The notes under the pieces: generated by a model
What the model saw: only the letters and a program-made list of their open reading frames with translations
What the model was told of the DNA's origin: nothing
The model's database searches: none
Position numbers and translations under genes: made by a program
NCBI GenBank assembly: GCA_949300325.1
Contig: CASGDQ010000043.1
Coordinates: forward strand, 2,221 to 66,220
Direction of reading: 5' to 3'
DNA from: an uncultured Spirochaetales bacterium
GTDB taxonomy: Bacteria > Spirochaetota > Spirochaetia > Sphaerochaetales > Sphaerochaetaceae
DNA length: 64,000 nt
Shown: positions 16,375 to 32,150 of the stretch, piece by piece
How positions within the stretch are numbered: position 1 is the stretch's first letter
How the letters are laid out: each line of letters opens with the position of its first letter

Positions 16375-17228
16375 AAGCCTGTTACATTCCTAAAACATTG
16401 CAGGAAGCTCTTGAAATAAGAAAGGAAACGGGCGCCAAGCCGCTTGCCGGAGGCACCGATCTCATGGTCCAGGCGGCAAAGGGCACAGGAATTGCCCCTA
16501 CATTCCCATTTCCGGTGATGGTGATTTCAAACATCAAGGAACTTAAAGGGATAAGAGTGGAGGATGGAGAAGTTGTCATAAAGGCGCTTTCAACTCCTGC
16601 AGAGATAGCTTCATGCGATTTTGTCCCTTACCATGTAAGAGCCGCCGCATCCCAGATGGGTGCAGTGGCATTGCGCAACAGCGCAACGATAGGCGGGAAT
16701 ATAGGAAATGCTTCGCCAAAAGGGGATCTTCCCCAGCCCCTCATCTTGTTGGATGCGAAGGTGGAGCTGGCGAGCTTGGAGGGTGTAAGAACAATTCTTC
16801 TTGATGATTTCATCAAAGGAAGCAAAAAGACCGTGCTGCGTGATGATGAGATCATAACAGCGGTAAGGATACCCGAGGTTGCATACACACATCTTTTCTA
16901 TCATAAGATCGGCACTAGGAGAGCAAATGCCATAAGCAAGCTCAGCCTTTCCTGTCTGGCTCTTATAGAAGATGGTGTTGTAAAGGATTTTAGGGCTTCT
17001 ACAGGAGCAGCAGGTCCGAAGGTCAGAAGAAGCCGCGATGCGGAAAAAATCATAATCGGTCTTAAAATCGAGGATATTCCAGATAATATCGGACGTTTTA
17101 CCGATGCATGGAATTCCATATTGAGTCCTCATGCAATGCCCGAATGGAGAAGGGCAAGCACGAGAAGGATGCTTACATATTTTCTGGAGAAGCTTTCTTC
17201 GGGTGCCGAGCCGGGGATCATCGTCTGA
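16365..17228 (+). CDS. Xanthine dehydrogenase-family FAD-binding medium subunit
   Basis: 287 aa with the AGGTDLMVQ and TIGGNIGNASP motifs of the CO dehydrogenase flavoprotein fold. Overlaps the small-subunit stop. Confidence 0.85.
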   Translation: MAVEACYIPKTLQEALEIRKETGAKPLAGGTDLMVQAAKGTGIAPTFPFPVMVISNIKELKGIRVEDGEVVIKALSTPAEIASCDFVPYHVRAAASQMGAVALRNSATIGGNIGNASPKGDLPQPLILLDAKVELASLEGVRTILLDDFIKGSKKTVLRDDEIITAVRIPEVAYTHLFYHKIGTRRANAISKLSLSCLALIEDGVVKDFRASTGAAGPKVRRSRDAEKIIIGLKIEDIPDNIGRFTDAWNSILSPHAMPEWRRASTRRMLTYFLEKLSSGAEPGIIV

Positions 17229-17250
17229 TTTGGATTTGAAAGGAGGTCAT

Positions 17251-17928
17251 GTGAGGGAAATACTGAAACCCGCAACAGCGCAAGATGCTGTGAAAATGGT
17301 TGACAAAGGGGCATATATGCTCGGAGGTACGGAGATTTTGCGGCTGGGCTCCTCTGTGGATGCGGATATTGCAATCATAGATGTGTCGGCTGTCGTTCCT
17401 TCCGGAATATCGGTTTCCTCCAATAAAGTTGAAATCGGAGCTAGCGCAACGTTTTCTGATATTCTTGAAGCCAAAGAGATTCCTTCCTTTTTGAAGGAAG
17501 CGGCATCTGAAATGAAATCGCCGCAGCTTAGGAATGCTGCAACAATAGGCGGAAACATTGCAGCCAAAAGGGATGATTCCTATCTTATTCCTGCTCTTGT
17601 TGCAGCCGATGCTCATCTTGTAGTTGTAAATAAGAAAGGGGAAATCCACGAATGCCCGCTAACAAAGTACATTTTTAAAGATTGTTCATGTCTTATTCTG
17701 AAGGTTGTCTTCAATGCTGATGCTCATGTGTCTGTAAGGAGATTCTCTCTTACTAGCCATTCTCATGCGGTTCTGACATGCGCCTTCGGCAGCAATGAAT
17801 GCTATGCTGTAAAAGGAGGGGGCATCGCCTTATCCATCGAGGATGCGGTTTTTGTCTCCGATATGTACGGTTCTTCGGAATATAAGAGATATCTTGCCGG
17901 TGAGGCAAAGGCCGAAGCGGGGAGGTGA
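17251..17928 (+). CDS. ygfM: YgfM-like FAD-binding subunit (second, shorter flavoprotein paralog)
   Basis: GTG at 17251 lies 4 nt after AGGAGG (17241-17246); the ORF-track start at 17131 overlaps the previous gene. LGGTEIL and TIGGNIAAK motifs. Sits directly before the xdhD-like gene, as in E. coli ygfM-xdhD. Confidence 0.7.
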   Translation: MREILKPATAQDAVKMVDKGAYMLGGTEILRLGSSVDADIAIIDVSAVVPSGISVSSNKVEIGASATFSDILEAKEIPSFLKEAASEMKSPQLRNAATIGGNIAAKRDDSYLIPALVAADAHLVVVNKKGEIHECPLTKYIFKDCSCLILKVVFNADAHVSVRRFSLTSHSHAVLTCAFGSNECYAVKGGGIALSIEDAVFVSDMYGSSEYKRYLAGEAKAEAGR

Positions 17929-17931: not shown

Positions 17932-20808
17932 ATGGAAATCAGGACTGTAATAAACAATAAGAACGTCATCCTGAAAGCAGAAGCCTGGGAGGATCTAAGG
18001 ACTGTGCTTTACAGGAGCGGCTTCACCTCGTTGCGCGACAGCGACGACAGGGAGGGGTTTTGCGGAAGCGATACGATTGTCTTCAACGGAAGGCTCATGT
18101 ATTCGAACCTGATTTTAGCCTATAAGGCTGAGGGTGCAAAAATAAGGACGCCTGAATCCCTTTCCATCGGCAGAAAACCGAATGACGTGCAGAGGGCGAT
18201 GATTGCATCCGGTGTCGTTCAGAGCGCTTACAATGCCCCGGAGGCAGCTCTTATACTCACATATCTGCTTGAAAAGAACCCTCATCCCTCAAAAGAGGAG
18301 ATAAAGGACGCGCTTTCCGGCATTTTCATACGCGATGCAGGCTATGAGCATTATTATCTTGCTGTCCGTCTTGTGGAGGAGGAAAGGCAATACGGCTGCT
18401 ACAAGACTCCCGTATCCCCATCTTTCAGGGACAATCTCAAGTTCGTAGGAAAACCGACTGGAAAAATCGACGGAGAAGCCCTCGTAATGGGTGAGAAGGT
18501 GTTTGTCGAAGATAAAGTGCTTCCCGGCGCGTATGTGCTTCTCGTTCTCAGAAGCCCCTTTGCACATGCATACATAAAGAGCATCGACATATCGAAAGCA
18601 GAGAAGCTTGACGGGGTTGAGACCGTGATAACCTGCGAAAACTGCCCGGATGTATATTACATGCAGGCTGGACAGGGCAATCCCGAACCCAGCCCTCATG
18701 ACAGAAGGCTTTTCAATCGCAAGGTGAGGCATGTCGGCGATCGGGTTGCGGCAGTTGTTGCAAAGGATTACGAAACAGCAGAAAAGGCTCTCAGCCTGAT
18801 TAATGTGGAATACGAGCCCCTTTTGCCTGTATTCACGGTCGAAGAGGCAATGGCTGAAGGCGCTCCTCTTGTTCACAACGGTTTTGTCGAATACCGCTCC
18901 GGGGCTCCTGCCGACCTTGATGAATACAATAAGAAGTATGAGAAGAGGGATGGCAAGGTCATCTACCAATTTCCTCTCCATGGGGATATCCGGCATAACA
19001 TTGCAGCTGGGGCGCATGGCGGGATCGGCGATATAGAAAAAGGATTTGAGCAAGCGGATGCGATAGTCGATGAGACTTATCAGACCAGCCAGGTTCAGTG
19101 CACGCCCCTAGAGCCTCATGTATGCTATTCACGCATCGAAGGCGGACGTCTTGTCATCCACGCATCGACTCAGGTGCCGTATCATGTTAGGCGCATCGTC
19201 TCATGGGTCTGCGAGATACCCGAGCATAAGGTGCATGTCATAAAAGAAAGGGTAGGAGGCGGATATGGAAGCAAGCAGGATGTGCTTGTGGAGGATCTAT
19301 GCGGCTATGCTACATGGATTACGGGAAAACCCATATACTATCGTAATTCCAGAGCCGAGGAGTTTTATGCCAATTCCACACGCCATCCGATGAGGGTCCG
19401 CGTCAAGATGGGTGCTAAGAAGGATGGCACGATAACTGCAATCTACATGGATGTAAGGGCCAATACAGGTCCGTATGGCAACCACTGTCTGACAGTGCCG
19501 ATGAATGCTTCGAGCAAAACGCTGCCGATTTTTGCAGTGGATAACATGTATTACGACCTTACGACGTATTATACGAACATCCCTCCGACAGGCGCATATC
19601 AGGGATATGGGGCTCCAAAGGGTTATTTCGGCATAGTTTCCTGCATGGGACAGCTTGCCATGAAGCTTGGAATTGATCCGCTTGAAATGGCTAAAAAGAA
19701 CATAGTCGATGAAGGCTATATGCTTGAGATCCTGCGCGGGCTTGGAGAAGGAAGGGAAGGTGCGGTGGTCCCTGTTGGTTCCTGCGGCCTTCGTGAAGCC
19801 CTGGACAAGGGTGGAAAGATGATCGATTGGGGAAAGAAGGAAGTATCTGATGATCCCGATTGGAAAATCGGCAAGGGCTTTGCGATGATACAGCAGGGCT
19901 CCGGGCTTCCTGGACTGGATCATTCGAATGCCCAGTGCAAGCTTGTCTCCGATGGCTCGTTCATCGTCTTAAGCGGAGGTGCAGACCTTGGCACCGGCCT
20001 TGATACGATTTCAGCAAAGTGTTGCGCCGAGATCTTGAAGTGCAGCCTTTCGGATGTCTCCGTAGTAAGCGGAGATACCGACAGCTGTCTGTTCGATACA
20101 GGCGCTTATGCTTCAAGCGGAACATATTTCTCTGGCAATGCTTCCTTGAATGCAGCAAAGGATCTTCTTAAAAAGATCATCCATGAAGCTTCATTGGAGC
20201 TTGGTGAGGCGGAGGAGGATCTGTTTGCCGCAGAACCGGGAAAGATAGTTTCCAAGAAGACGAAAAAAGAGCTTACATATGCCCAGATAGCGCATGCTGT
20301 ACTAAGCGGCGACGGTCGTGGAGCGCTCATCGGCACCGGTACGTTTGTCACCCCGAATTTCGCAGTTCCGTATGGAGCGCATTTTGCGCAGGTGGCGGTC
20401 AATGTCAAGACGGGGCAGGTGAAGGTGATGAAATTCTACGCCCTTCAGGATGCGGGCACTCCGATCAATCCTGAGCTTGCGCTCTGCCAGATGTATGGCG
20501 CTGTCCAGAAGAGCATCGGACATACTCTCTATGAGAACATGATCCTTGATAAGGATGGAAGGTGCATAAATGCCAATATGACAGATTATGGCGCGCCGAT
20601 GATAGGCGAGGCACCTGATGATTTCAAGGCTGTCCTGATAGATGTCAATGATCAGTACGGTCCATTCGGTGCAAAGTCGATAAGCGAGATTGCTACAAAC
20701 GGTGCCGCTCCTGCGATTGCCATGGCGATTGCCGATGCAACAGGCGTGTGGGTCAGATCCTGGCCGATAACCCCTGAAAAGATTCTCAAAGGGCTTGGAC
20801 GGTTCTGA
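17932..20808 (+). CDS. xdhD: XdhD-like fused (degenerate Fe-S domain + molybdopterin-binding) hydroxylase subunit
   Basis: 958 aa. The N-terminal ~160 aa align to the 2Fe-2S subunit fold but lack the cysteines. The rest is an aldehyde oxidase/xanthine dehydrogenase Mo-binding domain (GGGYGSKQ, YQGYGAPKG, GPFGAKSISE). Confidence 0.8.
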   Translation: MEIRTVINNKNVILKAEAWEDLRTVLYRSGFTSLRDSDDREGFCGSDTIVFNGRLMYSNLILAYKAEGAKIRTPESLSIGRKPNDVQRAMIASGVVQSAYNAPEAALILTYLLEKNPHPSKEEIKDALSGIFIRDAGYEHYYLAVRLVEEERQYGCYKTPVSPSFRDNLKFVGKPTGKIDGEALVMGEKVFVEDKVLPGAYVLLVLRSPFAHAYIKSIDISKAEKLDGVETVITCENCPDVYYMQAGQGNPEPSPHDRRLFNRKVRHVGDRVAAVVAKDYETAEKALSLINVEYEPLLPVFTVEEAMAEGAPLVHNGFVEYRSGAPADLDEYNKKYEKRDGKVIYQFPLHGDIRHNIAAGAHGGIGDIEKGFEQADAIVDETYQTSQVQCTPLEPHVCYSRIEGGRLVIHASTQVPYHVRRIVSWVCEIPEHKVHVIKERVGGGYGSKQDVLVEDLCGYATWITGKPIYYRNSRAEEFYANSTRHPMRVRVKMGAKKDGTITAIYMDVRANTGPYGNHCLTVPMNASSKTLPIFAVDNMYYDLTTYYTNIPPTGAYQGYGAPKGYFGIVSCMGQLAMKLGIDPLEMAKKNIVDEGYMLEILRGLGEGREGAVVPVGSCGLREALDKGGKMIDWGKKEVSDDPDWKIGKGFAMIQQGSGLPGLDHSNAQCKLVSDGSFIVLSGGADLGTGLDTISAKCCAEILKCSLSDVSVVSGDTDSCLFDTGAYASSGTYFSGNASLNAAKDLLKKIIHEASLELGEAEEDLFAAEPGKIVSKKTKKELTYAQIAHAVLSGDGRGALIGTGTFVTPNFAVPYGAHFAQVAVNVKTGQVKVMKFYALQDAGTPINPELALCQMYGAVQKSIGHTLYENMILDKDGRCINANMTDYGAPMIGEAPDDFKAVLIDVNDQYGPFGAKSISEIATNGAAPAIAMAIADATGVWVRSWPITPEKILKGLGRF

Positions 20809-20816
20809 AAAATATG

Positions 20817-20847
20817 CGGCTGGTTCTTGGAACCGGCCGTTTTTTTT
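20817..20847. terminator. Bidirectional rho-independent terminator between convergent xdhD and tetR
   Basis: cggctggttc (20817-20826) pairs with gaaccggccg (20830-20839), including one G-T pair, followed by 8 T. An A-rich run on the left flank (20808-20812) would serve the opposite strand. Confidence 0.8.
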
Positions 20848-21392
20848 CAGGATAAGAGAGTTTTGCTTTGCTCCAAAAGAAGCGTTATCTTGTCAATGTC
20901 CACGCTCAGTGGATTTGTGATATGCCTTTTCAAGGCTTGGATCAAAAAAAGCGAGTAGAAATCCAAGAGAAGAGGATCTGCATCCTTATCCCCGTTTGCC
21001 AGCCTGGAAAAGAAGATGTAGCGCAGCGCATCCTCAAGCTTTCTTTCAAACCGGATTGATGGACGTTTTGCTAAAAGCATCGAAAGGCTTTTTGACTCGT
21101 CATCTGCAAAATTTATGAGCCCTGCGAGGAATTTCTTCAAATCCTTTTCTTCGTCCAATTTCAGCAAGCGGTATATCAAATCGTCCTCGATTTCCTCATA
21201 AAGGTCCCTTACATTGTCATAGTAGCTATAGAATACGCTTCTCTCCACGCCGGCCCTATCGCTGACCATCCTTGCGCTTATCATATCCTCGTCTTCTGTT
21301 TCGAGAAGTTCTAAAAGGCTGTCCTGCAGCGCGAACTGTGCGCTGGTAAACGTTAGTTTGGATATTTTTGCAATGTATGAGTATGGATTCAT
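20847..21392 (-). CDS. TetR/AcrR-family transcriptional regulator
   Basis: 181 aa with an N-terminal HTH region (ISARMVSDRAGVERSVFYSYYDNVRDLYEEI). Last gene of the csd-xdhC-tetR string. Confidence 0.65.
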   Translation of the reverse strand: MNPYSYIAKISKLTFTSAQFALQDSLLELLETEDEDMISARMVSDRAGVERSVFYSYYDNVRDLYEEIEDDLIYRLLKLDEEKDLKKFLAGLINFADDESKSLSMLLAKRPSIRFERKLEDALRYIFFSRLANGDKDADPLLLDFYSLFLIQALKRHITNPLSVDIDKITLLLEQSKTLLS

Positions 21393-21401: not shown

Positions 21402-22367
21402 CTACCTTATTGCAGAAGATGGGGAAAGATATTTGAACATCACTGATGCCTTTCCTCCGCAGGCCATGCCCAGCTCGCCTTTGCTTGTTAAATCGAAATC
21501 GCATATCATCGTTTTCCCCTTTGAGGAAAGCAGGCATAAAGCCTTTTTCTTTGCTTCTTCTTCCAGCGCTCCTCCTCCGATGCTTGCTATGCATCCTGAG
21601 GATGCTACGAGCATTTCCGCACCTTTTCTTGCAGGCCCTGAGCCGGTTTTTCTTATTATGCGGCATAGCACCGCTTCTTCTTTCAAATCGGATAAAGCCT
21701 TCAATATTGCCAGATCGGCTTCTATGGAATCCTTTTCTCCGCGGTATGTGCAGATGATCTCTGCCATTATTGCAACAGCGATTTCCTCCGCTGTGGCGGC
21801 TTTGATGTCGAGCCCTATCGGGGAATGAACTTTTTCAAGCTCTTTTCTTGTAAAGCCTTCGTTTTCAAGCTCGTTCCATGTTGCTTCTATCTTTTTTTTC
21901 GATCCTATCATGCCGATGTATGAAGAGCCTTTTTTGAGGGCCTTCCTTATGCAGATCCCATCTGCTTTGTGTCCATGGGTGAATATTATGAAATACGGAT
22001 TGTCGAAATGGTGTTTTTCAAGATCAATATCAGAAAACGGAAGAACATGCCTTTGGGCATTCATAAAACGCTCCTTGCTGCAGTATTCTTTTCTGTCGTC
22101 GAACACCGCAGTCTTGAGGCCGACAATCTCTGCTATTTTGTATAGCGCAGAAGCTATATGCCCGGCTCCGAACATGACAAGCGTAGGCGGCAGGCATATC
22201 GGATCTTCCAGGTTGTCCTCCCTTTTTTCGAATGCACAGGTTGAATCGATCAGCTTTCCATCAAGAAAAAGCGCTTCCTCTCCCGCTATATCAGGTGCCA
22301 CAGCCAAGCTTCTTACGAGCTGCGCCGTACACAGCGTATCCTTCAGTCTTCTATAATAGTCATCCAT
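21402..22367 (-). CDS. xdhC: XdhC/CoxI-family molybdenum-cofactor insertion chaperone (atypical domain order)
   Basis: ATG at 22367 (MDDYYRRL) follows AAGGAGGAG and overlaps the csd stop. Rossmann motif VMFGAGHIA is in the first half. The XdhC_CoxI-like segment (RKTGSGPARKGAEMLV...IGGGALE...GMACGG) is at the C-terminus. Confidence 0.7.
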   Translation of the reverse strand: MDDYYRRLKDTLCTAQLVRSLAVAPDIAGEEALFLDGKLIDSTCAFEKREDNLEDPICLPPTLVMFGAGHIASALYKIAEIVGLKTAVFDDRKEYCSKERFMNAQRHVLPFSDIDLEKHHFDNPYFIIFTHGHKADGICIRKALKKGSSYIGMIGSKKKIEATWNELENEGFTRKELEKVHSPIGLDIKAATAEEIAVAIMAEIICTYRGEKDSIEADLAILKALSDLKEEAVLCRIIRKTGSGPARKGAEMLVASSGCIASIGGGALEEEAKKKALCLLSSKGKTMICDFDLTSKGELGMACGGKASVMFKYLSPSSAIR

Positions 22368-23499
22368 TAATCTCCTCCTTGAGCGCACATATGGTTTTTT
22401 CGATCTCATCTTTTTTCGTGAATGGACCGGGTGAAAGCCTCAGCGTTCCCTGCGGGTATGTGCCAAGACTCATGTGCTCTATCGGCGCGCAGTGCAGGCC
22501 GACCCTGCATTCTATTCCATGATTCCTATAAAGCCTGTTTGCAAGCAATGCCAGATCCATCTTGTCCGTTGAGATCGATACCGCTCCTGTCCTCTTTTCT
22601 CCGCTTTTGGGTCCGATTATCCTGATATTGTCAATGCTTTCCAGCCCTGATACCAGAGAAAAGATGTTCTGCTCGTACTTTTTAAAAAGGTTGCTGGAAT
22701 TTGAATTGATGTAATCAAGTGCGGCTTTCAGGCCGAAAAGCCCTGGAAGATTTCTTGTCCCGGCTTCAAATTTATCAGGAAATATGTCCGGCATTTCGAT
22801 GCTGTCGGAAAAAGAGCCCGTTCCGCCTGCGATCAAAGGGGATGTCTTTTCCGCAATCTCTCTTCTTAAGACCATTCCGCCTGTTCCTTGCGGACCCAGC
22901 AATCCCTTATGCCCGGTGAAGAAAACTCCTGCAAGCTCCATTTCCTTCATGCTTATCCTTACAAATGGCGCAGCTTGGGCAGTATCAAGAAAGAGGGGAA
23001 GAAAGGCTTTCCTGCACAGCTCTGAAAGGACAGCAATATTCTCAATCCTGCCTGAAACATTGCTTGAGGCGTTTGCTATGACGGCTTTGACATTTCTTGA
23101 GACCAGATCCGTAAAGCGGGAGAAATCGGAGAGGCCGTTTTCATCCACCGGTATCCTTACGCTTTTGACGCCATGGCATGTAAGCGCTCTTTCGACGGCG
23201 TTATGCTCGTGCGAGGTCGTTATGACGATATCGTCCTTCTTGAAATATCCATGCACGAATATGTTCACGGCTTCAGTAACATTCTGCGTAAAAAATACCG
23301 TGTCTGCATCATCATATCCGAACAGCGATGCAATATCCTCCCTGAGAGCGCAAATCGCATCCTCCTCCTGGTATGCATTGTCGCTGTGCGTCCTTGATAG
23401 ATTGCAGCCGAGCTCATTCATGAAATATAATACGGCATTTGCCACTCCAGGGGCCTTTGGCCAGCTTGTGGCCGAATTATCCATGTAGATCCTGTCCAT
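22360..23499 (-). CDS. Class V aminotransferase / cysteine desulfurase-family protein (candidate selenocysteine lyase-type Se/S donor)
   Basis: 379 aa with PLP lysine in FTGHKGLLGP and active-site cysteine in GLHCAP. This is the stand-alone desulfurase type reported next to selenium-dependent hydroxylase genes. Confidence 0.75.
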   Translation of the reverse strand: MDRIYMDNSATSWPKAPGVANAVLYFMNELGCNLSRTHSDNAYQEEDAICALREDIASLFGYDDADTVFFTQNVTEAVNIFVHGYFKKDDIVITTSHEHNAVERALTCHGVKSVRIPVDENGLSDFSRFTDLVSRNVKAVIANASSNVSGRIENIAVLSELCRKAFLPLFLDTAQAAPFVRISMKEMELAGVFFTGHKGLLGPQGTGGMVLRREIAEKTSPLIAGGTGSFSDSIEMPDIFPDKFEAGTRNLPGLFGLKAALDYINSNSSNLFKKYEQNIFSLVSGLESIDNIRIIGPKSGEKRTGAVSISTDKMDLALLANRLYRNHGIECRVGLHCAPIEHMSLGTYPQGTLRLSPGPFTKKDEIEKTICALKEEING

Positions 23500-23572
23500 G
23501 TGTTAATTGTATATCTTTTCCATTGCGTATGCAAAAAGATAATGTTACCATCTTATCAATCAGGAGGTTCTG

Positions 23573-24640
23573 ATGATCGGTCAGAGAAAAAAATTGCTTG
23601 TTTCAGGAGCTCTGTTGGGGCTCTCAAGCATAATCCTTGTAGTATTGGGCAATCCCGGCAACATGGGACTTTGCATCGCTTGTTTTTTGAGGGATATCGT
23701 AGGTGCCCTGCATATTCATCCGGCACAGAATGTTTCATACATGCGTCCGGAAATACTTGGCATAGTGCTTGCGGCTTTTATTGTTTCTGTTGTGAAAAAG
23801 GAATTCCGTCCCCGCGGAGGATCTAATCCCGTGCTGAGATTCTTGCTTGGCGCTTTCATGATGATCGGTGCTCTTGTATTCCTCGGCTGTCCTGTAAGGA
23901 TGGTTCTGCGTCTTGCCGCAGGTGATATGAATGCGCTTATTGCTCTCATAGGTTTTGCCCTCGGGGTCGCTGCTGGATCGGCATTTTTGAACCAGGGATT
24001 TTCTCTCGGTCGGAGCAGGAGACTGCATGTGGCCTTCGGCCTTGCTTCTCCGGTGCTGTTTCTGATCTTCTTGTTCATATTGTTCTTTTTCCCAGCTCTT
24101 CTCGTTTTCGGAGATGCCGCTCCTGCAGCAAACCACGCCCCGATCGTCGCATCCCTGTTTTTCGGCGCGGTGGTAGGAATCGCCAGCCAGAGATCGAGGA
24201 TGTGCATGGCCGGAGGAATCAGGGATCTGATCCTTTTAAGGGATCCTGGACTCATAATGGCTCCTATCGCCATGTTTGTTGTGGCTCTTGTAGGAAATCT
24301 CGTGATCGGCAAGTTTAATTTGGGATTTGCTTCGCAGCCCATAGCCCATACCGAAGGCGTGTGGAACTTTTTAGCTATGTTCCTCGTCGGTCTTTGCGCG
24401 GTAATGCTTGGCGGCTGCCCCCTCAGACAGCTCATCCTTTCTTCAGAAGGGGATTTCGATGCATTCATAACGGTCATAGGTCTTATGGCGGGAGCCGCTG
24501 TTTCCCATAATTTCAGCGCGGCAAGCAGCGCGAATGGAACGACCGCAAATGGAAGGATGCTTGTAATAGTCGGACTTGTTTTCGCTTTTGCTGTAGCAGT
24601 GATCGTTACTATGAGAAATAGGAGGAAAGAAAATGGTTGA
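23573..24640 (+). CDS. yedE: YedE-family putative selenium/sulfur-compound transporter
   Basis: 355-aa polytopic membrane protein with duplicated halves carrying GLCIACFLRD and SRMCMAGGIRD motifs. AGGAGG lies 5 nt upstream. Confidence 0.8.
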   Translation: MIGQRKKLLVSGALLGLSSIILVVLGNPGNMGLCIACFLRDIVGALHIHPAQNVSYMRPEILGIVLAAFIVSVVKKEFRPRGGSNPVLRFLLGAFMMIGALVFLGCPVRMVLRLAAGDMNALIALIGFALGVAAGSAFLNQGFSLGRSRRLHVAFGLASPVLFLIFLFILFFFPALLVFGDAAPAANHAPIVASLFFGAVVGIASQRSRMCMAGGIRDLILLRDPGLIMAPIAMFVVALVGNLVIGKFNLGFASQPIAHTEGVWNFLAMFLVGLCAVMLGGCPLRQLILSSEGDFDAFITVIGLMAGAAVSHNFSAASSANGTTANGRMLVIVGLVFAFAVAVIVTMRNRRKENG

Positions 24641-24839
24641 TGCACGTGGACTCAGCTGCCCTGAGCCAGTAATCATGGTAAAAAAGTTTTTGAAATCCAA
24701 TAATAATCCCAAAAGTGTGCATGTGCGCGTGGATAACGTTGCCAGCAAGGAGAATGTTACAAGGTATCTTGAAGCCATGGGGTACAAGGTTGAGATAATC
24801 AAGGAAGATGATGGATGGTCGCTGAAAGCAGGATTGTGA
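24633..24839 (+). CDS. yedF: TusA/SirA-like sulfur(selenium)transferase, short YedF-like
   Basis: 68 aa with the CPxP active-site motif (GLSCPEPV). Overlaps the yedE stop. Confidence 0.75.
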   Translation: MVDARGLSCPEPVIMVKKFLKSNNNPKSVHVRVDNVASKENVTRYLEAMGYKVEIIKEDDGWSLKAGL

Positions 24840-25063
24840 CCCTGACATTTTCTTCCCATTACGAGGCGGTCAAGCTTAAGCGCGCTCTAGCGAAAAAAGG
24901 CATTGGCTGCCGTCTCGTGCCTGTGCCCAGGAGCCTTTCATCTTCCTGCGGCACGGCAATGGAAATAAACGAGAAGGATGCTTTTGCGGCCAAGGAGCTT
25001 GAAATAGCTGAAGGGGCGTTCATTGAGGAGGAAGGAAAATGGTCAAGCTTACGAGGATGGTGA
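24815..25063 (+). CDS. DUF3343-type putative Se/S carrier protein
   Basis: About 80 aa with the typical F.S...A..AE/K..L...GI...L.P.P...S.SCG pattern (VPVPRSLSSSCGTAMEI). An alternative GTG start at 24836 overlaps the yedF stop. Confidence 0.65.
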   Translation: MVAESRIVTLTFSSHYEAVKLKRALAKKGIGCRLVPVPRSLSSSCGTAMEINEKDAFAAKELEIAEGAFIEEEGKWSSLRGW

Positions 25064-26061
25064 AGACAAGCGGATGCGCGGCAAAACTGGCTGCGAAAGA
25101 TCTGCATGAGGTTCTTTCCTCGCTGCCTAAAAAGGCTGATGAGAAACTTCTGGTGGGTTTCGAAGGCTCTGATGATGCGCTGGTCTACGATTTGGGAAAC
25201 GGCGATGTCATGATATCAACGGTGGATTTCTTTCCACCTGTGGCCGACGATCCTTATACCTTCGGTCAGATTGCGGCGGCAAACGCGCTTTCCGATGTGT
25301 ATGCTATGGGCGGGGACCCGAAGGTCTGTATGAACCTTGTGTGCTTCCCGTCATGTCAGGATCTTGATATTTTGAAGCAGATACTCACCGGCGGATGCGA
25401 CAAGGTGCACGAAGCAGGAGCTGTTGTCGCAGGAGGGCATACCATTGCAGATTCGGTGATCAAGTATGGCTTATCTGTAACTGGTTTTGGTAAAAAGAAT
25501 TCATTTTGGACGAATGCCGGAGCAAAGGAAGGGGATGTCATAGTCCTTACGAAGAAGATCGGGGTAGGGATAATCAATACTGCGGCAAAAGCGGACGAAG
25601 TTCCGGAAGCTCTTCTCTCTGAGGCCCTTTCTTCTATGAAAACCCTCAATAAGAGAGCAAAGGAAGCTGCAGAAGGCCTTGATGTGAGAGCTGCAACCGA
25701 CATAACTGGATTTTCTCTTCTCGGCCACCTCTATGAGATGGCATCTTCAAGCGGAGTTTCGATAACCATAGATCACAGCAGTGTTCCGCTTTTTGACGGT
25801 GTTGTCGATCTTGCCCGGTTCGGTTTCCTGAGCGAGGGTGTTTACAACAACAGGGAATACATTGAAGAAAGTGTTCATTTCGAGCCATCTTTGAAAAGGG
25901 AGATATGTGATGTACTCTTCGATCCTCAGACATCTGGAGGACTTGCCCTTGCCATGAGCGAACCAGATGCTGCAGAGTATCTGAAAAGGATGTCTGATAC
26001 ACCTGCGGCTATGATCGCACGAGTTGGTAAGAAAAGAGATTATCCTGTGTATGTGATATGA
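25039..26061 (+). CDS. selD: Selenide, water dikinase (selenophosphate synthetase), Cys form
   Basis: 340 aa. N-terminal TSGCAAKL (Cys-x-x-Lys catalytic loop, Cys rather than Sec), PurM-like fold motifs (DDALV, VDFF.P, DVYAMGG, GGHT). GGAGGAAGG lies upstream. Confidence 0.9.
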   Translation: MVKLTRMVKTSGCAAKLAAKDLHEVLSSLPKKADEKLLVGFEGSDDALVYDLGNGDVMISTVDFFPPVADDPYTFGQIAAANALSDVYAMGGDPKVCMNLVCFPSCQDLDILKQILTGGCDKVHEAGAVVAGGHTIADSVIKYGLSVTGFGKKNSFWTNAGAKEGDVIVLTKKIGVGIINTAAKADEVPEALLSEALSSMKTLNKRAKEAAEGLDVRAATDITGFSLLGHLYEMASSSGVSITIDHSSVPLFDGVVDLARFGFLSEGVYNNREYIEESVHFEPSLKREICDVLFDPQTSGGLALAMSEPDAAEYLKRMSDTPAAMIARVGKKRDYPVYVI

Positions 26062-26066
26062 AACGG

Positions 26067-26092
26067 ATGCCATCGCTGATGGCATTTTTTTT
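26067..26092 (+). terminator. Rho-independent terminator after selD
   Basis: atgccat (26067-26073) pairs with atggcat (26079-26085), followed by an 8-T run. Confidence 0.8.
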
Positions 26093-26170: not shown

Positions 26171-27268
26171 GTGGATTCCATGATAAACGATACACAACGT
26201 CCTGTCCGTTTGAAGGACATAGCTGAAAATCTCAATCTTTCGATAGGAACGGTGCAGAAAGCGCTTTGCAACCAAGGTGGTTGCAGCGAGCAAACGAAAC
26301 AGCGCATTTTGGATGAAGCAAAAAGGCTTGGCTATAAAGCCAACAAGGCCGCGTCATCCCTTAGGCGTGGAACGATAAACATCGCTGTCGTCCTTCCAAA
26401 AGACGAGGGGATGAACCGTTTCTTCTATAAGAAGGTTTGGGATGGAATAAAAAAAGCGGCACAGGATTTTGCAGTCTACAACATCAATATAATAGAATAT
26501 CCGTCAGATGATGAGATCGCCTGCTTGGTAGAACTTTTGAATGCAAAGGATTTCATGTTTGATGGCATAATCACGGAAGGGTTCGATACACCGGAATTCA
26601 ATAGCATTTCAAATAAGTTCTATTCCATGGGCATACCTCTTTTCTTTATTAATGGATATGTCTATGCAGCGGATAATCTTCGTCTGAAACCTGATTCTTC
26701 CTCGAAATCTGGAGCCATAGCTGCCGATATCTTTAATGCTGTGATTGGCAACAAGCATGGAACAATCCTGCTTGTTGGCGGGGACCGTACCAGCGGAAGG
26801 CAGTACGAAAGGAGTACGGAATTCAGGCAAACAATATCTTCCTATAACCCTGATATCTCCATAATAGAAGCGTATTATGGGGCCAGCCTTTCTCAATATG
26901 AGGATTCCTTAGTGACATATTTCAAGGATATAAGCAACCTTGTCGGAGCCTATGCCGTATCATCAAGAAGCACATTCATTATGTGCCGTGCCATAAAAAA
27001 GGTTGGACAGTCCGGAAAAATCATAGCAGTCGGTACGGACATGTTCGAAGAGCTAATCCCATACTTCGAAGATGGCACGCTCACAGCAACGATCTATCAA
27101 TATCCTGTACATAGAGGATATCTTGCAGTTCAGGCCATATGCCGCACGATAATGGGGCAGGTAGTCGGAGATGACAGCCTTCCTATGGCTGCAGTTTTCC
27201 GCCATAATGCGAGAGAATTCAGTAATTATGGGTCGAGTTTGAGTATAGCAAACGGAACTTTACAATAA
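26171..27268 (+). CDS. LacI/GalR-family transcriptional regulator
   Basis: N-terminal HTH (RLKDIAENLNLSIGTVQKAL) plus a periplasmic-binding-protein-like sugar-binding core. Start is either the GTG at 26171 or the ATG at 26180. Confidence 0.8.
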   Translation: MDSMINDTQRPVRLKDIAENLNLSIGTVQKALCNQGGCSEQTKQRILDEAKRLGYKANKAASSLRRGTINIAVVLPKDEGMNRFFYKKVWDGIKKAAQDFAVYNINIIEYPSDDEIACLVELLNAKDFMFDGIITEGFDTPEFNSISNKFYSMGIPLFFINGYVYAADNLRLKPDSSSKSGAIAADIFNAVIGNKHGTILLVGGDRTSGRQYERSTEFRQTISSYNPDISIIEAYYGASLSQYEDSLVTYFKDISNLVGAYAVSSRSTFIMCRAIKKVGQSGKIIAVGTDMFEELIPYFEDGTLTATIYQYPVHRGYLAVQAICRTIMGQVVGDDSLPMAAVFRHNAREFSNYGSSLSIANGTLQ

Positions 27269-27275
27269 CGTTATT
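27264..27275. promoter_or_regulatory. LacI-type operator O1, perfect 12-bp palindrome AATAACGTTATT
   Basis: Self-complementary with a central CG, as in LacI/GalR-family operators. Overlaps the lacI-family stop codon (27266-27268). Part of a 17-nt exact repeat (27262-27278 = 27391-27407). Confidence 0.7.
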
Positions 27276-27387
27276 TCTATTTTTTATTAAATTTATATAT
27301 CAAAAATAACGGTTTTAATAGTTTTTATGCTAAAATTTACTGCATATAGAAATTTTTGTAATTACTTACAGTGAGATTCTTTTTTTC

Positions 27388-27415
27388 TTGACAATAACGT
27401 TATTTCTGGTAACCT
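27388..27415 (+). promoter_or_regulatory. Putative promoter of tctB-tctC-tctA-sulfatase operon
   Basis: -35 TTGACA (27388-27393), 16-nt spacer, weak -10 TAACCT (27410-27415). Operator O2 fills the spacer. Confidence 0.5.
27393..27404. promoter_or_regulatory. LacI-type operator O2, perfect 12-bp palindrome AATAACGTTATT
   Basis: Identical to O1. Begins at the last base of the TTGACA -35 and occupies the spacer. A degenerate third copy, AATAACGGTTTT, is at 27305-27316. Confidence 0.7.
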
Positions 27416-27432
27416 AATTATCAGGAGGTCAT

Positions 27433-27906
27433 ATGAAATCAAAATCATCTGTCTTAAGTGCTGATTTCTGGTTTGGTATCGTATCTCTTGTTGTTCTGAT
27501 AGCTTTTTGGACGCAAACGGGAAAGCTAAGTGCTCAGGTGAAGATCATGCCGAGAGTTGTTCTTGCAATCGGAATTGTTTCTGACCTGCTTGTAATTGCA
27601 AAAGCGCTTAAGAATCCTGTAACCAAGGAAGAATGTGCATACAACAAGATGAGATATATCCTTACCGGATTCGTGGTTTTTGCAATTGTTGCCTTGCTTT
27701 TGGCTTTTTCTAGCGCCATAGGCATGTATTTGAGCTTGTTTCTTTCCCTTGTTGTCATATCAGGGACCATATGCGTGAAAGAAAACGGATGGAATTGGAA
27801 AAAAATTGGATTTTTTATCATGTACGACTTTATTGTTACGGCAATCCTGTTTTTGTTTTTCCGTGTTTTTCTTTCCATCAATACACCAACTGGAATCTTA
27901 ATTTGA
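27433..27906 (+). CDS. tctB: Tripartite tricarboxylate transporter small membrane subunit (TctB-like)
   Basis: 157 aa with four hydrophobic segments. Calling it tctB relies on its position next to tctC and tctA. SD AGGAGG upstream. Confidence 0.65.
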   Translation: MKSKSSVLSADFWFGIVSLVVLIAFWTQTGKLSAQVKIMPRVVLAIGIVSDLLVIAKALKNPVTKEECAYNKMRYILTGFVVFAIVALLLAFSSAIGMYLSLFLSLVVISGTICVKENGWNWKKIGFFIMYDFIVTAILFLFFRVFLSINTPTGILI

Positions 27907-27921
27907 AAAGGAGATAAAAAA

Positions 27922-28896
27922 ATGAAAAAATTATTTATTGTTGCTATTGTGCTTTTAAGCGTGTTTTCGCCTGTTTTCGCAGCTGGCAGCACCGAGTCAT
28001 CTGGAACATCCAGCAATTATCCTTCAAGGCCTATAACCTTCATCGTAAACAGGGCAGCCGGCGGCGCCACCGATGCTGTAGCTCGTGTGATAGCTACCGC
28101 CATGCAGAAAAATCTCGGATATACGACTGTTGTGCAGAATCTTGAAGGAGGGGACGGACTGATCGGAGCTAATACAGCAATAACCTCTAATCCTGATGGA
28201 TACACATTCATGATAGTAGGTTCCACCGAGATTCCGAACATGCTTGTCAATTTCCCTGAAGCTTCTTTCACCAAGGAAGATCTGGTTCCTATCTGCGAAG
28301 TCACAAGCAAATCTAAAATCCTTGCCGTAAAACCGAACAGCCAGATAAAGACGCTGGATGATTTCATTGCATATGCAAAAGCAAATCCTGGAAAGCTGAC
28401 CGTTTCTGTAAGTGGAAGCAACCATTTTTATGGTGTGATCCTTCTCGAGGAAGCTCTTGGAATAGATTTGACGATCGTCAATGCAGGAAGTGGGAGTTCT
28501 GCTTATACTATGCTTCTTGGAGGACATGTCGAATGCGGTCTCCTCGATTCGAATTATTATGAGAACTGTGAACTCGAAGGAATGACGATCCTTGCCGACA
28601 CCACGGATAACAGCGACGTCGTACCGGAAGGGTATCATACATTCACCGAGCTTGGTTACAACATGGTAGATACCAATTTCAATTACATTCTTGCTCCAAA
28701 GGGTACTCCTGCTGAAATCTGCCAGTTCATATCTGATGCTGTTGCAAAGCTCAATGATGAATATGACCTCAAGACTGCATTGGAAGCTACAGGTCAGAAT
28801 GCGGTTTATGTCGGATATGAAGAATTCCCGGCTGAATATTTTGAGTATATCGATAAGATGGTGGACCTCTACAATCAGACCAATAGCCTTGTATAA
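27922..28896 (+). CDS. tctC: Tripartite tricarboxylate transporter substrate-binding protein (TctC/Bug family)
   Basis: 324 aa with a signal peptide (VFSPVFA-AG) and Bug-family motifs (YPSRPITFIV...AGGATD, PNMLV). Confidence 0.8.
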   Translation: MKKLFIVAIVLLSVFSPVFAAGSTESSGTSSNYPSRPITFIVNRAAGGATDAVARVIATAMQKNLGYTTVVQNLEGGDGLIGANTAITSNPDGYTFMIVGSTEIPNMLVNFPEASFTKEDLVPICEVTSKSKILAVKPNSQIKTLDDFIAYAKANPGKLTVSVSGSNHFYGVILLEEALGIDLTIVNAGSGSSAYTMLLGGHVECGLLDSNYYENCELEGMTILADTTDNSDVVPEGYHTFTELGYNMVDTNFNYILAPKGTPAEICQFISDAVAKLNDEYDLKTALEATGQNAVYVGYEEFPAEYFEYIDKMVDLYNQTNSLV

Positions 28897-28908
28897 CAGG
28901 GGGTGTTT

Positions 28909-30453
28909 ATGGAGATTTTAAGCAGTTTTGCTGCTATTTTCACAACAGACGCCATTTTGATGCTTGCTTTGGGGACGGTATTCGGTATTTTCATCGGAGC
29001 CATCCCCGGGCTCGGCAATGCCATAGGTATTGCCGTGATGCTTCCTTTCACATATACCATGGCTCCTCTGAGTGCAATATGCCTTCTTTCCGGAATATAC
29101 ATGGGATGTGCCGTCGGAGGTTCGATTTCAGGAATACTGTTGAATATTCCTGGAACAGCAGAAAGCGTCTGCACCACCATAGAAGGATATCCGATGACTT
29201 TGAAGGGAAGGGGAATGGAAGCCCTGTATCTTTCCGGAATTTCCAGCACCTTCGGCGGGATTGTCGGTTGCATATTGATGATATTCTTTGCGCCTTTCCT
29301 CGCCCGGGTGGCATTGAAGTTCGGACCTGCCGAGATGGCTGTCGTTGCAATCATAGGATTGACGATCATCGCTAGCCTTTCTGCAGGAAACATCTGGAAG
29401 GGATTGCTCGGTGCAAGCTTCGGAATGGTTGTTGCAATGATAGGAATAGATCCGATCATCGGCAGGTCCAGGCTGACATTCGGTTTCACTTCGCTCACCA
29501 TCGGCTTCAAGCAGGTTGCCATTGCTCTTGGACTTATTGCTGGAAGACAGGTTATTGTTGAGACGATGAAGATATTCAAGGCCTGTGAAATGAAGAGGAG
29601 CGGATTGGATGAATCGGGCAATGTGAAGGAAATCGCATTGGAAAAGACGTCTCTGATACGTGTCCTCAAGGAAATAAAATCCAGAGGCGAGCTTTGGGTC
29701 ATGATCAAATCTGCGTTCTTAGGCACAGGTATAGGCATCCTTCCTGGCGCTGGTGTTGATATTGCCGCATATGTTGCATACGATTCGGCAAAACATGGTT
29801 CTAAAGAGAAATTCAAGACGGGGGTTCCCCGCGGCATAATCGCTGCAGAGACCGCAAACAATGCTGCAATCGGAGGCGCGTTTGTTCCGATGCTGGCTCT
29901 CGGCATTCCCGGCTCCAATGCTTCGGCACTGATTTTCGGTGCACTCACAATCCATGGAATCGTTGTCGGTCCGACAATGTTCACCGATCATGCCGAACTC
30001 AGTTATGGTTTCATGGTAGGCCTTTTGTTGAGCGCAATCATTATGGGAATCGCTTATTTCCTTTTTACTCCGGCTTTTGCAAAGATAGTCAAGGTTCATA
30101 TGAGATACCTGATCCCGCCGATTGTCGGATGTGTGCTTCTTGGAGCATACAGCATCAGAAACAGCATGTTTGATGTCTTTGTCATGATTGTTTTCACAGC
30201 TGTAGGATTCATCTTCTATTTAACGGAAGTTCCCATTGCTCCTGTTTTCCTTGGATTCATACTGCAGCCGATAGTGGAGAAAAACCTCAGCCAGGCGGCA
30301 ACGATATCCAATGCGCAGAACATAAGCCTGTTAAGGTACATTTTTTCAAGCCCGTTGTGCCTTGTGATCATCGCAGTCGGTGCCTTGCTGATGTTCCTTA
30401 ATGTCAGGGCATTGAGTGTCCAAAAGAAATCTTCAGGAGAGATCGGAGGCTGA
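28909..30453 (+). CDS. tctA: Tripartite tricarboxylate transporter large permease (TctA family)
   Basis: About 514-aa polytopic protein with typical TctA motifs (GAIPGLG, LPGAGVDIAAYVAY, GIPGS). I preferred the ATG at 28909 (5 nt after GGGGG) to the GTG at 28903. Confidence 0.85.
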   Translation: MEILSSFAAIFTTDAILMLALGTVFGIFIGAIPGLGNAIGIAVMLPFTYTMAPLSAICLLSGIYMGCAVGGSISGILLNIPGTAESVCTTIEGYPMTLKGRGMEALYLSGISSTFGGIVGCILMIFFAPFLARVALKFGPAEMAVVAIIGLTIIASLSAGNIWKGLLGASFGMVVAMIGIDPIIGRSRLTFGFTSLTIGFKQVAIALGLIAGRQVIVETMKIFKACEMKRSGLDESGNVKEIALEKTSLIRVLKEIKSRGELWVMIKSAFLGTGIGILPGAGVDIAAYVAYDSAKHGSKEKFKTGVPRGIIAAETANNAAIGGAFVPMLALGIPGSNASALIFGALTIHGIVVGPTMFTDHAELSYGFMVGLLLSAIIMGIAYFLFTPAFAKIVKVHMRYLIPPIVGCVLLGAYSIRNSMFDVFVMIVFTAVGFIFYLTEVPIAPVFLGFILQPIVEKNLSQAATISNAQNISLLRYIFSSPLCLVIIAVGALLMFLNVRALSVQKKSSGEIGG

Positions 30454-30454
30454 T

Positions 30455-31891
30455 ATGGAAAAAAAGAATATCATTTTCCTTATAAGCGATCAGATGCAGA
30501 AGCGTGCTGTGATAGATGATCCGCGTTGCATCATGCCAAACCTGCGTGAACTTGAAAAAGATTCGGTCCTCATGGAAAATGCGCATTCTGTGAACGCGAT
30601 CTGCTCTCCGTCCCGTGCTTCCTTGATTTCAGGTCTTCTGCCTCATAATCATGGAATGGTAGACTGTACCCATACAGTGCCGGAGTACCGTTCGAATTTC
30701 TCAACATCCATTTCCACTCTTCCGGAAGAATTGAAAGCAAACGGATACCGCCTTGCATATTACGGCAAATGGCATATAGAGAGATCTTATGATCTTTCAA
30801 AATATGGCTTTGAGGATTATGAGACCGAGAAGACGATTGCAAGCAGCAAGCTCACCTCGGTCAAAAAGGTCCAGATAAGCACCATGGGCTATAAGGACCA
30901 TACGCTTTGCGGCGTCTATAAGGAAGGACAGGAGGCATCGGAGGAACATTTTGTCTATTCCAAGGCAATGGATTTCATCGAAAAAGTCAAAGGGGGACAG
31001 GAGCCATTCTGCGTCTTCATCTCGACTTACGCTCCTCATGATCCGTATTTTGTGCCAGAGGAGATTTTTAATCTGTATAACAATGATGACTTTGCATTGC
31101 CATCGGATTGGAATGAAGAGAGAAGCGATGCCCCAAAAATCTATTCCAGGCTGCATGAGGTATGGAAAGATCTGACAGAGGAGCAGGTCAGGGATGCGAT
31201 CATGTGCTACTATGGCTGCTGCACTCTAGTCGACCGGCAGATAGGCAAGCTTATTGGATATCTTAAGGAAAATGATCTTTATGATGATACCATGATTGTG
31301 TTCTTATCAGATCATGGGGATATGTGCGGCTCGCATGGGCTATTTTGCAAGGGTGTTCCTGCTTATGAGGAGGCCTATGCCATACCTTTGGTTGTTAAGT
31401 TCCCGCAAAATGCTTATTCCGGGCGGAAAGAAAAGGCATATGTCGATACATGCGATATACTGCCGACCGTTTTTGAAGCTTGTAATGTCCGATGGAGCGG
31501 AAATGCCATCGATGGCTCGTCTTTCGTGCCTTATCTGAAAGGTGTGCGGGATTCAAAGGATTCTTATTCTGTAGCGGAATTCTTCGGACAGAGATTTTCT
31601 TATACCCAGAGGATAGTATGGCATGGCGGCATGAAGTATATTTTCAATGCATTTGACGATGATGAACTGTACGATCTGGAAAAGGATCCTTTTGAGAAAT
31701 GCAATCTTGCAGATGATCCGAATTATCAGGAAAAGAAAGAGGATCTGTGCCGGTTGCTTTGGAAGAGGGTCATTGAAACTGACGATTGGTCGTTCAGGGA
31801 TGCGCAGTATTGCATGCACAGGATTCTTCCCTGCGGGCCGGGACTAAAGAGTGTTGGAAGTGATTTCTCCCTCTATAATAAAACAATATGA
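30455..31891 (+). CDS. Cys-type sulfatase (arylsulfatase family), no signal peptide
   Basis: ATG at 30455 follows GGAGG and the tctA stop. Formylglycine target motif CSPSRASLISG and metal ligands (ISDQ..., SDHGD). The N-terminus MEKKNIIFLISDQ has no export signal. Confidence 0.85.
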   Translation: MEKKNIIFLISDQMQKRAVIDDPRCIMPNLRELEKDSVLMENAHSVNAICSPSRASLISGLLPHNHGMVDCTHTVPEYRSNFSTSISTLPEELKANGYRLAYYGKWHIERSYDLSKYGFEDYETEKTIASSKLTSVKKVQISTMGYKDHTLCGVYKEGQEASEEHFVYSKAMDFIEKVKGGQEPFCVFISTYAPHDPYFVPEEIFNLYNNDDFALPSDWNEERSDAPKIYSRLHEVWKDLTEEQVRDAIMCYYGCCTLVDRQIGKLIGYLKENDLYDDTMIVFLSDHGDMCGSHGLFCKGVPAYEEAYAIPLVVKFPQNAYSGRKEKAYVDTCDILPTVFEACNVRWSGNAIDGSSFVPYLKGVRDSKDSYSVAEFFGQRFSYTQRIVWHGGMKYIFNAFDDDELYDLEKDPFEKCNLADDPNYQEKKEDLCRLLWKRVIETDDWSFRDAQYCMHRILPCGPGLKSVGSDFSLYNKTI

Positions 31892-32085: not shown

Positions 32086-32092
32086 ATTTTTC

Positions 32093-32121: not shown

Positions 32122-32150
32122 TAGCAAAGTATAGGATAGGAGGACCTGTA

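Follow-up and report, generated by a model that had tools for sequence, protein, structure and literature searches.

Two divergent operons around one control region

A cluster of seven genes was analysed in a 64-kb stretch of DNA from an uncultured Spirochaetales bacterium (contig CASGDQ010000043.1), here called the window, whose positions serve as coordinates throughout. The genes encode selenophosphate synthetase (SelD), a putative selenium importer (YedE), two small putative carrier proteins, a pyridoxal phosphate (PLP)-dependent lyase, an XdhC-family chaperone of the molybdenum cofactor (Moco) and a TetR-like protein. All seven open reading frames (ORFs) are present when the sequence is read directly, and they flank an intergenic region of 73 bp (23500-23572). 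A sequence-only reading had described two compact divergent operons of overlapping or nearly abutting genes; reading the junctions base by base bore this out, and family profile scores upheld the gene identities that it had proposed. Its span for the cluster, 21402-26061, takes in six of the genes and omits the seventh, the TetR-like gene at 20847-21392.

The left operon, on the minus strand, begins with csd (22360-23499; 379 amino acids, aa), which encodes a class-V PLP lyase of the EF2568/SclA type, either a selenocysteine lyase or a cysteine desulfurase. Its start is fixed at 23499 because an in-frame TAA separates this codon from the upstream ATG; the longer start called in relatives, giving 387 aa, was rejected for the window. 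The csd stop codon (22360) and the xdhC ATG (22367) share an 8-nt overlap, ATGGATGA, and AAGGAGGAG stands 5 nt upstream of that ATG. This start of xdhC (21402-22367; 321 aa), rather than that of a longer ORF from 22409, is backed by close homologues of 321 aa. The TetR-like gene (181 aa) follows after a 9-nt gap as the last gene of the operon. A terminator scan placed a hairpin at 20816-20840 that is common to this gene and to a convergent molybdenum/iron-sulfur (Mo/Fe-S) hydroxylase gene on the plus strand, and a T-run is read directly 3' of the stem on both strands.

The right operon, on the plus strand, consists of yedE (23573-24640; 355 aa), coding for a membrane protein; yedF (24633-24839; 68 aa), coding for a TusA/SirA-type carrier like E. 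coli YedF; a DUF3343 gene (24815-25063; 82 aa; Pfam Se_S_carrier); and selD (25039-26061). The yedF ATG (24633), preceded by AGGAGGA, and the yedE stop codon (24640) overlap by 8 nt, ATGGTTGA. The next two junctions have 25-nt overlaps, the first between the DUF3343 ATG (24815) and the yedF stop codon (24839), with GTG at 24836 as an alternative DUF3343 start, and the second between the selD ATG (25039), preceded by GAGGAGGAAGGA, and the DUF3343 stop codon (25063). A terminator-like hairpin from the same scan closes the operon at 26065-26087 (plus strand). The overlaps of 8, 8, 25 and 25 nt were found again in relatives whose XdhC is 68-86% identical and are, therefore, no accident of one sequence; fixed stoichiometry through translational coupling can only be inferred from them.

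YedE passes the curated threshold of TIGR04112 (448.6 bits; cut-off 200) and reaches only 36-39 bits with the TsuA thiosulfate models, whose cut-offs are 400-645, which separates it from TsuA/YeeE transporters. SelD scores 364.8 bits with TIGR00476 (cut-off 125) and is of the cysteine form, with the N-terminal motif TSGCAAK. The DUF3343 protein matches PF11823 at 57.8 bits (gathering score 25) and has a cysteine in SSSCG that is probably the conserved one reported for the family (Lin et al., 2015; PMC5322559); no relative of solved structure was found for it. The 68-aa carrier matches Pfam TusA (65.9 bits against 28.6), with its CPxP motif in the form CPEP, and falls short of the TIGR03527 'YedF' model (61.2 bits against 110), of which only positions 1-60 of 194 were matched. 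It is a stand-alone TusA-type domain.

The two best profile matches of the lyase both belong to the EF2568/SclA group, TIGR01977 (346.6 bits) and the SclA model NF040779 (270.7 bits), each below its trusted cut-off (377 and 525, respectively); SufS follows at 175 bits, and the group ranks well above SufS, CsdA and IscS. The sequence RVGLHCAP fits the group II motif RxGxHCA with its catalytic cysteine (bioRxiv 10.1101/2020.02.07.939272), and the HK pair in FTGHKG is taken to contain the PLP lysine. The SclA enzyme of Enterococcus faecalis uses selenocysteine as its substrate, and cysteine inhibits it (bioRxiv 10.1101/2020.02.07.939272).

Comparison of gene neighbourhoods, which the sequence-only reading had proposed as a check, showed that the linkage is kept. 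The whole divergent module occurs in the same order in four close relatives (loci L082-L085; XdhC 68-86% identical), and a fifth locus, L086, is cut inside the lyase gene and retains xdhC, a 182-aa gene and the hydroxylase. The same divergent module was found by tblastn in L005 (Sphaerochaetaceae) and L007 (Spirochaetales), with XdhC about 36% and SelD 56-58% identical to the window proteins. Locus L005 also carries both of the hydroxylases described below, together with ssnA, ygfK and ygeW; near the module of L007, ygeW was the only one of the pathway and hydroxylase genes to be detected. In locus L022, from Alistipes, a single strand carries selD, yedF, csd, the DUF3343 gene, two unassigned ORFs, the Fe-S and Mo subunit genes, yqeC, yqeB and a permuted xdhC. 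The flanks of the module vary among close relatives. Near relatives keep the linkage, and distant ones show it reshuffled.

The control region contains a 45-nt core (23504-23548), identical in the window, L082, L084 and L085, which is a candidate for an operator with promoters. In a 5.3-kb alignment of the module from these four loci, 68% of the columns are identical in all, and the core is the longest identical run; about 2e-4 such runs would be expected by chance. Inside it lies a 30-bp inverted repeat, TATCTTTT-N14-AAAAGATA (23512-23541). A promoter scan placed a promoter-like site for csd on the minus strand at 23506-23535 (TTTGCA, 18 nt, TACAAT). The csd mRNA is probably leaderless, because the -10 hexamer ends 6 nt before the ATG, a spacing kept in L082, L084 and L085, and no Shine-Dalgarno sequence was read before that ATG. 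For yedE, the only candidate seen by eye was GATAAT (23538-23543), which has a poor -35 and is overlapped by the right arm of the palindrome; it could be the -10 element. If transcription began at the predicted sites, neither mRNA would include the palindrome, and a DNA operator is favoured. An RNA element was rejected, as no Rfam family reached its gathering score anywhere in the window. A wider regulon was likewise rejected: the window holds no second exact copy of the palindrome, and its four matches with three mismatches, in or at coding sequence, are unconvincing.

The assignment of the last gene of the left operon to the TetR family was weak in Pfam, where TetR_N (PF00440; 16.4 against 24; E=0.0078) and TetR_C_8 (E=0.099) matched in the right order below threshold, and was rescued by a match to the TetR-family structure 3kkc_A (E=8.9e-8 over aa 17-131); three further weak matches in the PDB are annotated as TetR. 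Only four homologues were found among 5.8 billion proteins, and they were discarded as a guide to function, the distant one (P0124; 29% identity) lying in an unrelated context. No TetR-like match was obtained in any of the 80 genome loci introduced below. A 182-aa gene takes the position of the TetR-like gene in L082-L086 and is its presumed counterpart, and all four diverged loci that share the core have a gene at this position. In L005 and L007 a TetR-like gene was not detectable; L005 is without the core, and L007 has part of it. The suggestion that this gene encodes a local regulator is plausible, given its position 9 nt after xdhC and the invariant palindromic core in four diverged loci, and the simplest reading would be one autoregulated repressor acting on both promoters. 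The TetR-like protein contains no cysteine, so that ligand sensing through thiol-selenium chemistry is unlikely; an effector of the purine or urate type is a guess.

A circularly permuted XdhC

The canonical domain order of the XdhC/CoxF/PaoD family, with the CoxI-type domain N-terminal and the Rossmann domain C-terminal, is reversed in the window protein, in which a small beta domain is followed by the Rossmann domain and the CoxI-type domain comes last. In the numbering of the longer ORF, Pfam XdhC_C matches aa 77-218 (136.1 bits) and XdhC_CoxI matches aa 243-300 (46.2 bits). Alignment to PDB entry 3on5 (BH1974) pairs residues 217-311 with chain positions 21-119 and residues 61-214 with positions 200-347, and alignment to the N-terminal half of the YqeB protein of the window likewise gives two segments in swapped order. 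The protein is, thus, a circular permutant of the family. A Foldseek search of the PDB with its AlphaFold2 model (predicted local distance difference test score 93) ranked two XdhC-family structures, 2we8 and 3on5, at the top (E about 1e-14); the TM-scores were partial, as fits a permutation. Scores remain below the equivalog cut-offs of TIGR02964 (124.7 against 161.6) and NF045664 (241.9 against 350). An invariant cysteine, Cys303 in the motif MxCGG, aligns with the cysteine in GSGCNG of BH1974 and would correspond to Cys82 of Rhodobacter capsulatus XdhC.

A genome collection was scanned with an alignment of XdhC, which yielded 80 loci (best match to the window protein, 39% identity), and these were searched by tblastn with the window proteins. 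The permuted order occurs in 30 of the 80. Genes for YqeB, YqeC, SelD or an SclA-like lyase (csd) lie within 10 kb of xdhC in 19 of the 30 permuted loci against 10 of 50 in which the canonical order or only the Rossmann domain was detected (Fisher p=2e-4), a contrast confounded by phylogeny, as many of the latter loci carry titles such as Acidobacteriota and Terriglobia and provide no like-for-like control. Permuted XdhC next to yqeB/yqeC or the selD module is found in loci titled as three phyla.

In Clostridia, yqeC, a short yqeB and permuted xdhC form a tight operon of separate genes; a yqeB-xdhC fusion, suspected from abutting tblastn matches, was rejected on the ORF maps, which show neighbouring genes. 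This 'short' YqeB of Clostridia and Bacteroidota (about 260 aa) consists of the TIGR03309 domain alone and was seen in L010, L012 and L014 (around 8500-10800) and in L009, L022, L023 and L076. In the first three loci, a permuted XdhC gene follows the short yqeB after 23-66 nt and codes for a protein without the N-terminal beta domain, of 251-293 aa in L012 and L014. A gap of 0.7-1.1 kb separates the two genes in the other four, and the permuted XdhC of L022 has 341 aa. The window YqeB is of the 'long' form, its N-terminal half being XdhC-like in canonical order; the window thus encodes two XdhC-type modules, possibly one for each of its hydroxylases. The arrangement in Clostridia and Bacteroidota suggests that a separate permuted XdhC replaces the fused XdhC-like half of long YqeB.

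Probable selenium supply to molybdenum hydroxylases

The gene cluster stands among potential client enzymes. Directly adjacent (17932-20808, plus strand) is a gene for a 958-aa fused 2Fe-2S and Mo-binding hydroxylase of the YgfN/XdhD type (TIGR03313, 1213.5 bits against 1101.9), a candidate counterpart of the 2,8-dioxopurine dehydrogenase XdhAC of Clostridium sporogenes, from which its probable pathway role is taken by homology (bioRxiv 10.1101/2025.04.24.650524). A second client (13764-17928, plus strand), identified by profile search, is a three-subunit hydroxylase resembling xanthine dehydrogenase (XDH), with Mo, 2Fe-2S and flavin (FAD) subunits, the XdhA-like one encoded at 13764-15905, and an additional YgfM-like FAD subunit. 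The YgfM-like ORF (17131-17928) and the FAD-subunit gene before it (16365-17228) have 98 nt in common, and the true start of the former probably lies downstream of 17131, because equivalents in relatives are called at 203-225 aa.

Genes of the 2,8-dioxopurine/uric-acid pathway accompany the hydroxylases: ygfK, ssnA and ygeY at 5048-10820 (plus strand; TIGR03315, 1287.7 bits; TIGR03314, 539.2; TIGR03526, 493.6; all above cut-off) and ygeW, for a knotted carbamoyltransferase, at 31989-33353 (plus strand; TIGR03316, 773.4 bits against 500). The selenium-cofactor trait markers yqeC (41512-42222; TIGR03172, 110.1 bits against 73.05) and yqeB (42200-43699; TIGR03309, 360.4 bits against 220) lie on the plus strand 16 kb downstream of selD. 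SelD, YqeB with YqeC, and a neighbouring hydroxylase of the xanthine oxidase family, by which the trait of selenium-dependent molybdenum hydroxylases (SDMH) is recognised, are all present in the window, and hydroxylases of this trait would carry labile, non-selenocysteine selenium. The presence of selD is therefore explained by the hydroxylases, the pathway genes and yqeB/yqeC in the same window. The proposed connection of the cluster to Moco maturation is supported by this context, and its description as 'self-contained' is wrong, as yqeC and yqeB stand 16 kb away.

Other genes of the window were noted in passing. Upstream of ygfK, on the minus strand (1516-4290), are two PLP fold-type II enzymes, one threonine-synthase-like (406 aa) and one cysteine-synthase-like and unusually long (508 aa), both well below equivalog cut-offs. 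Between ygeY and the XDH-like operon (10917-13557) are genes for an acyltransferase-domain protein and for a 477-aa protein without NCBIfam match, which may be a transporter of the pathway substrate; its L082 counterpart has a weak Glt_symporter match. Between selD and ygeW (26171-31891) are a LacI-type regulator, a TctB/TctC/TctA tripartite transporter and a sulfatase, a block that looks like an insertion into the purine locus; in L082 (4861-7327) a ygeW-like carbamoyltransferase gene comes directly after selD. An 83-nt ARAGORN call of tRNA-Pro(TGG) in the LacI-type ORF (26353-26435, minus strand) is a probable false positive, as no Rfam tRNA match reached the gathering score there. Genes hyuA, ygeX and yqeA were not found among the scanned ORFs of the window.

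The reading preferred here, with a probability of roughly three in four, is that the seven genes form that arm of an SDMH locus which supplies selenium and loads the cofactor; this locus, an instance of the 'third selenium utilisation trait', would serve anaerobic degradation of purines and uric acid in a Sphaerochaetaceae-like spirochaete. From the gene content we infer the following route. YedE would import a selenium species across the membrane, and the TusA-type CPxP protein and the DUF3343 protein would hold selenium as a protein-bound perselenide or selenotrisulfide, from which SelD would form selenophosphate at the expense of ATP. The PLP lyase would move selenium, rather than sulfur, from free selenocysteine onto the cysteine of its GLHCAP motif. 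XdhC would keep Moco while the terminal chalcogen ligand is installed, with YqeB and YqeC acting in the selenium step, and would then insert the cofactor into the neighbouring hydroxylases, in parallel to NifS4-XdhC of R. capsulatus. The TetR-like protein would bind the 30-bp palindrome in the 45-nt core and repress both divergent promoters, including that of its own operon.

Parts of this scheme are established in other organisms, namely the chemistry of SelD, the selenocysteine-specific lyase activity of E. faecalis SclA (bioRxiv 10.1101/2020.02.07.939272) and Moco sulfuration by NifS4-XdhC (PMC2997495, PMC13653126). Growth of Clostridioides difficile on xanthine and urate requires selD and yqeB (PMC11448449). 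In C. sporogenes, both hydroxylases need selD, and purification of the 2,8-dioxopurine dehydrogenase from a selD mutant gave inactive enzyme (bioRxiv 10.1101/2025.04.24.650524). The remark in the sequence-only reading that no order of transfer has been established agrees with Johnstone and Self (2024; PMC11448449), who describe the mechanism of insertion as unknown and even whether the selenium of the cofactor derives from selenophosphate.

Several points weigh against the preferred reading, in addition to the phylogenetic confounding of the XdhC comparison. Direct delivery of selenium from the lyase to XdhC-bound Moco would leave the need for SelD unexplained; with SelD as the donor, the role of the lyase may be limited to selenium recycling. 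The genome was seen within the 64-kb window, and SelD may have a further role in the synthesis of selenocysteine or selenouridine. The lyase scores below both the TIGR01977 and SclA cut-offs, and a preference for selenium over sulfur is therefore unproven. Deletion of yedE in Methanococcus maripaludis had no clear selenium-transport phenotype (PMC11097638), and DUF3343 has no selenium-specific subfamily (PMC5322559). Finally, the promoter scan found no consensus-grade sigma-70 promoter for yedE.

A more specific version of the selenium route is possible but doubtful. It would make the SclA-like lyase and permuted XdhC a dedicated 'Moco selenurase' that installs terminal Mo=Se on the chaperone-bound cofactor, permuted XdhC a third, unrecognised trait marker that in most Clostridia and Bacteroidota partners short YqeB as a protein of its own, and the lineage-specific, cysteine-free TetR-like repressor a tie between selenium supply and demand through a single operator.

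The alternative that survives best, although unlikely, is that the lyase works with XdhC as an ordinary Moco sulfurase of the NifS4-XdhC kind and installs Mo=S, with selenium entering only via SelD and YqeB/YqeC and gene adjacency reflecting shared clients, not shared chemistry. The sole biochemically defined desulfurase-XdhC pair does transfer sulfur (PMC2997495, PMC13653126), whereas the selenocysteine-active SclA of E. faecalis is inhibited by cysteine (bioRxiv 10.1101/2020.02.07.939272). Although the lyase misses the cut-offs of its two best models, these belong to the EF2568/SclA group and score well above SufS, CsdA and IscS. The second XdhC-like module fused to YqeB in the window, and the presence of an SclA-like lyase gene within 10 kb in only 4 of the 30 permuted-XdhC loci, speak for this alternative, but the lyase gene and the selD operon have a single 73-bp control region in common, invariant core included. 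Likewise, C. difficile retains selD-independent use of hypoxanthine (PMC11448449), yet both C. sporogenes hydroxylases require selD (bioRxiv 10.1101/2025.04.24.650524).

It is considerably less probable that the right operon is a general unit of selenium uptake and activation, feeding mainly selenocysteine or selenouridine synthesis, and that its adjacency to the hydroxylases is incidental. SelD, YedE, SirA-like and DUF3343 proteins are indeed found in organisms with all three selenium traits (PMC5322559, PMC2432076), and the genome was seen only within the 64-kb window. However, the long ORFs scanned in the window yielded no selA, selB or selU family, a few frames lying outside the scan, and no tRNA-Sec was found in the window. 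Furthermore, hydroxylase and pathway genes still adjoin the module in L082-L085 and L005; near it, only ygeW was detected in L007 and one hydroxylase in L022. It is very improbable that the module instead handles sulfur, with thiosulfate or zero-valent sulfur entering via a YeeE/TsuA-like protein and TusA to supply thiolation: YedE is distantly homologous to TsuA/YeeE, TusA-type proteins are sulfur carriers (PMC11582611) and there is no selenium-specific DUF3343 clade (PMC5322559), but YedE scores 448.6 bits on the selenium-linked TIGR04112 against 36-39 on TsuA models, its orthologues are reported solely in selenium users (PMC5322559), and the operon ends in selD, which overlaps the DUF3343 gene by 25 nt.

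Relation to known systems

The novelty of the linkage that the sequence-only reading implied is not upheld. Linkage of selD with genes for SirA-like proteins, CsdB (EF2568), XdhC (EF2571) and Mo hydroxylases was tabulated in 2008 (Zhang et al., 2008, PMC2432076; Haft and Self, 2008, PMC2276186), XdhC being listed already as a neighbour of trait genes (PMC2432076), and that of YedE, YedF, DUF3343 and selenocysteine lyase in 2015 (Lin et al., 2015; PMC5322559). The locus is a correct rediscovery, a very complete example of an already described kind of cluster in a relative of the Sphaerochaetaceae. The additions made here are modest: a permuted XdhC subfamily and its association with yqeB/yqeC, an invariant operator-like core that accompanies a lineage-specific TetR-like gene, and a lyase gene that is likely leaderless. 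A full-text literature search for 'XdhC' together with 'circular permutation' found nothing.

Entry of selenium into molybdenum hydroxylases is the least understood of the biological routes of this element, and these enzymes drive anaerobic degradation of purines and uric acid by gut bacteria and, through it, affect urate balance in the host. The locus brings no new principle, but it is unusually complete, with uptake, carriers, activation, lyase, chaperone, regulator, both clients and yqeBC in about 40 kb, arranged around two discrete transcription units and one candidate operator; being complete and tidy, it is therefore a convenient template for reconstitution. Should the permuted XdhC subfamily prove to mark the trait, genomes with the selenium cofactor could be annotated better.

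The closest described counterpart is the E. faecalis region EF2563-EF2582, which contains yqeB, yqeC, SirA-like EF2566, selD (EF2567), sclA (EF2568), a mobA-like gene, XDH (EF2570), xdhC (EF2571), ygeW, ygeY, ygfK and ssnA (PMC2276186, PMC2432076; work of Srivastava and Self). The window shares with it SelD, a carrier of the SirA/TusA type, an EF2568-type lyase, XdhC, YqeB, YqeC, a hydroxylase of the xanthine oxidase family, ygfK, ssnA, ygeY, ygeW and the inferred purpose. In contrast to E. faecalis, the selD operon of the window includes yedE and the DUF3343 gene, its carrier is a 68-aa stand-alone TusA domain and not the 194-position TIGR03527 form, the lyase and XdhC genes form a divergent operon of their own with the TetR-like gene, yqeC and yqeB are 16 kb away, and the host is related to Spirochaetota.

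Slackia heliotrinireducens has the same triplet of YedE, SirA-like and DUF3343 proteins (Shel_25110-25130) and a second group of DUF3343, selenocysteine lyase and YedF (Shel_25430-25450) (PMC5322559); the association of DUF3343 with selenocysteine lyase and SelD is shared as well. Unlike in Slackia, which decodes selenocysteine, the triplet of the window overlaps selD by 25 nt and adjoins Mo hydroxylases.

With NifS4 and XdhC of R. capsulatus, which serve as the model for how chaperone-bound Moco receives its terminal chalcogen ahead of insertion (PMC2997495, PMC13653126), the window shares the pairing of an enzyme of the PLP desulfurase family with an XdhC that bears the conserved cysteine of its family. 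The R. capsulatus system, however, moves sulfur, its XdhC has the canonical domain order, and the pairing there is based on two-hybrid and surface plasmon resonance assays, not on gene adjacency (PMC2997495, PMC13653126); the window has an SclA-type lyase and a permuted XdhC, with an 8-nt overlap between their genes.

Finally, the hydroxylase of the XdhAC/YgfN type, ygfK, ssnA, ygeY, ygeW, yqeB and yqeC recur in C. difficile, C. sporogenes and the ygeV-ygfT region of E. coli (PMC11448449; bioRxiv 10.1101/2025.04.24.650524). Whereas selD, yqeB and yqeC are scattered in C. difficile, the window holds supply genes, clients and markers within about 40 kb.

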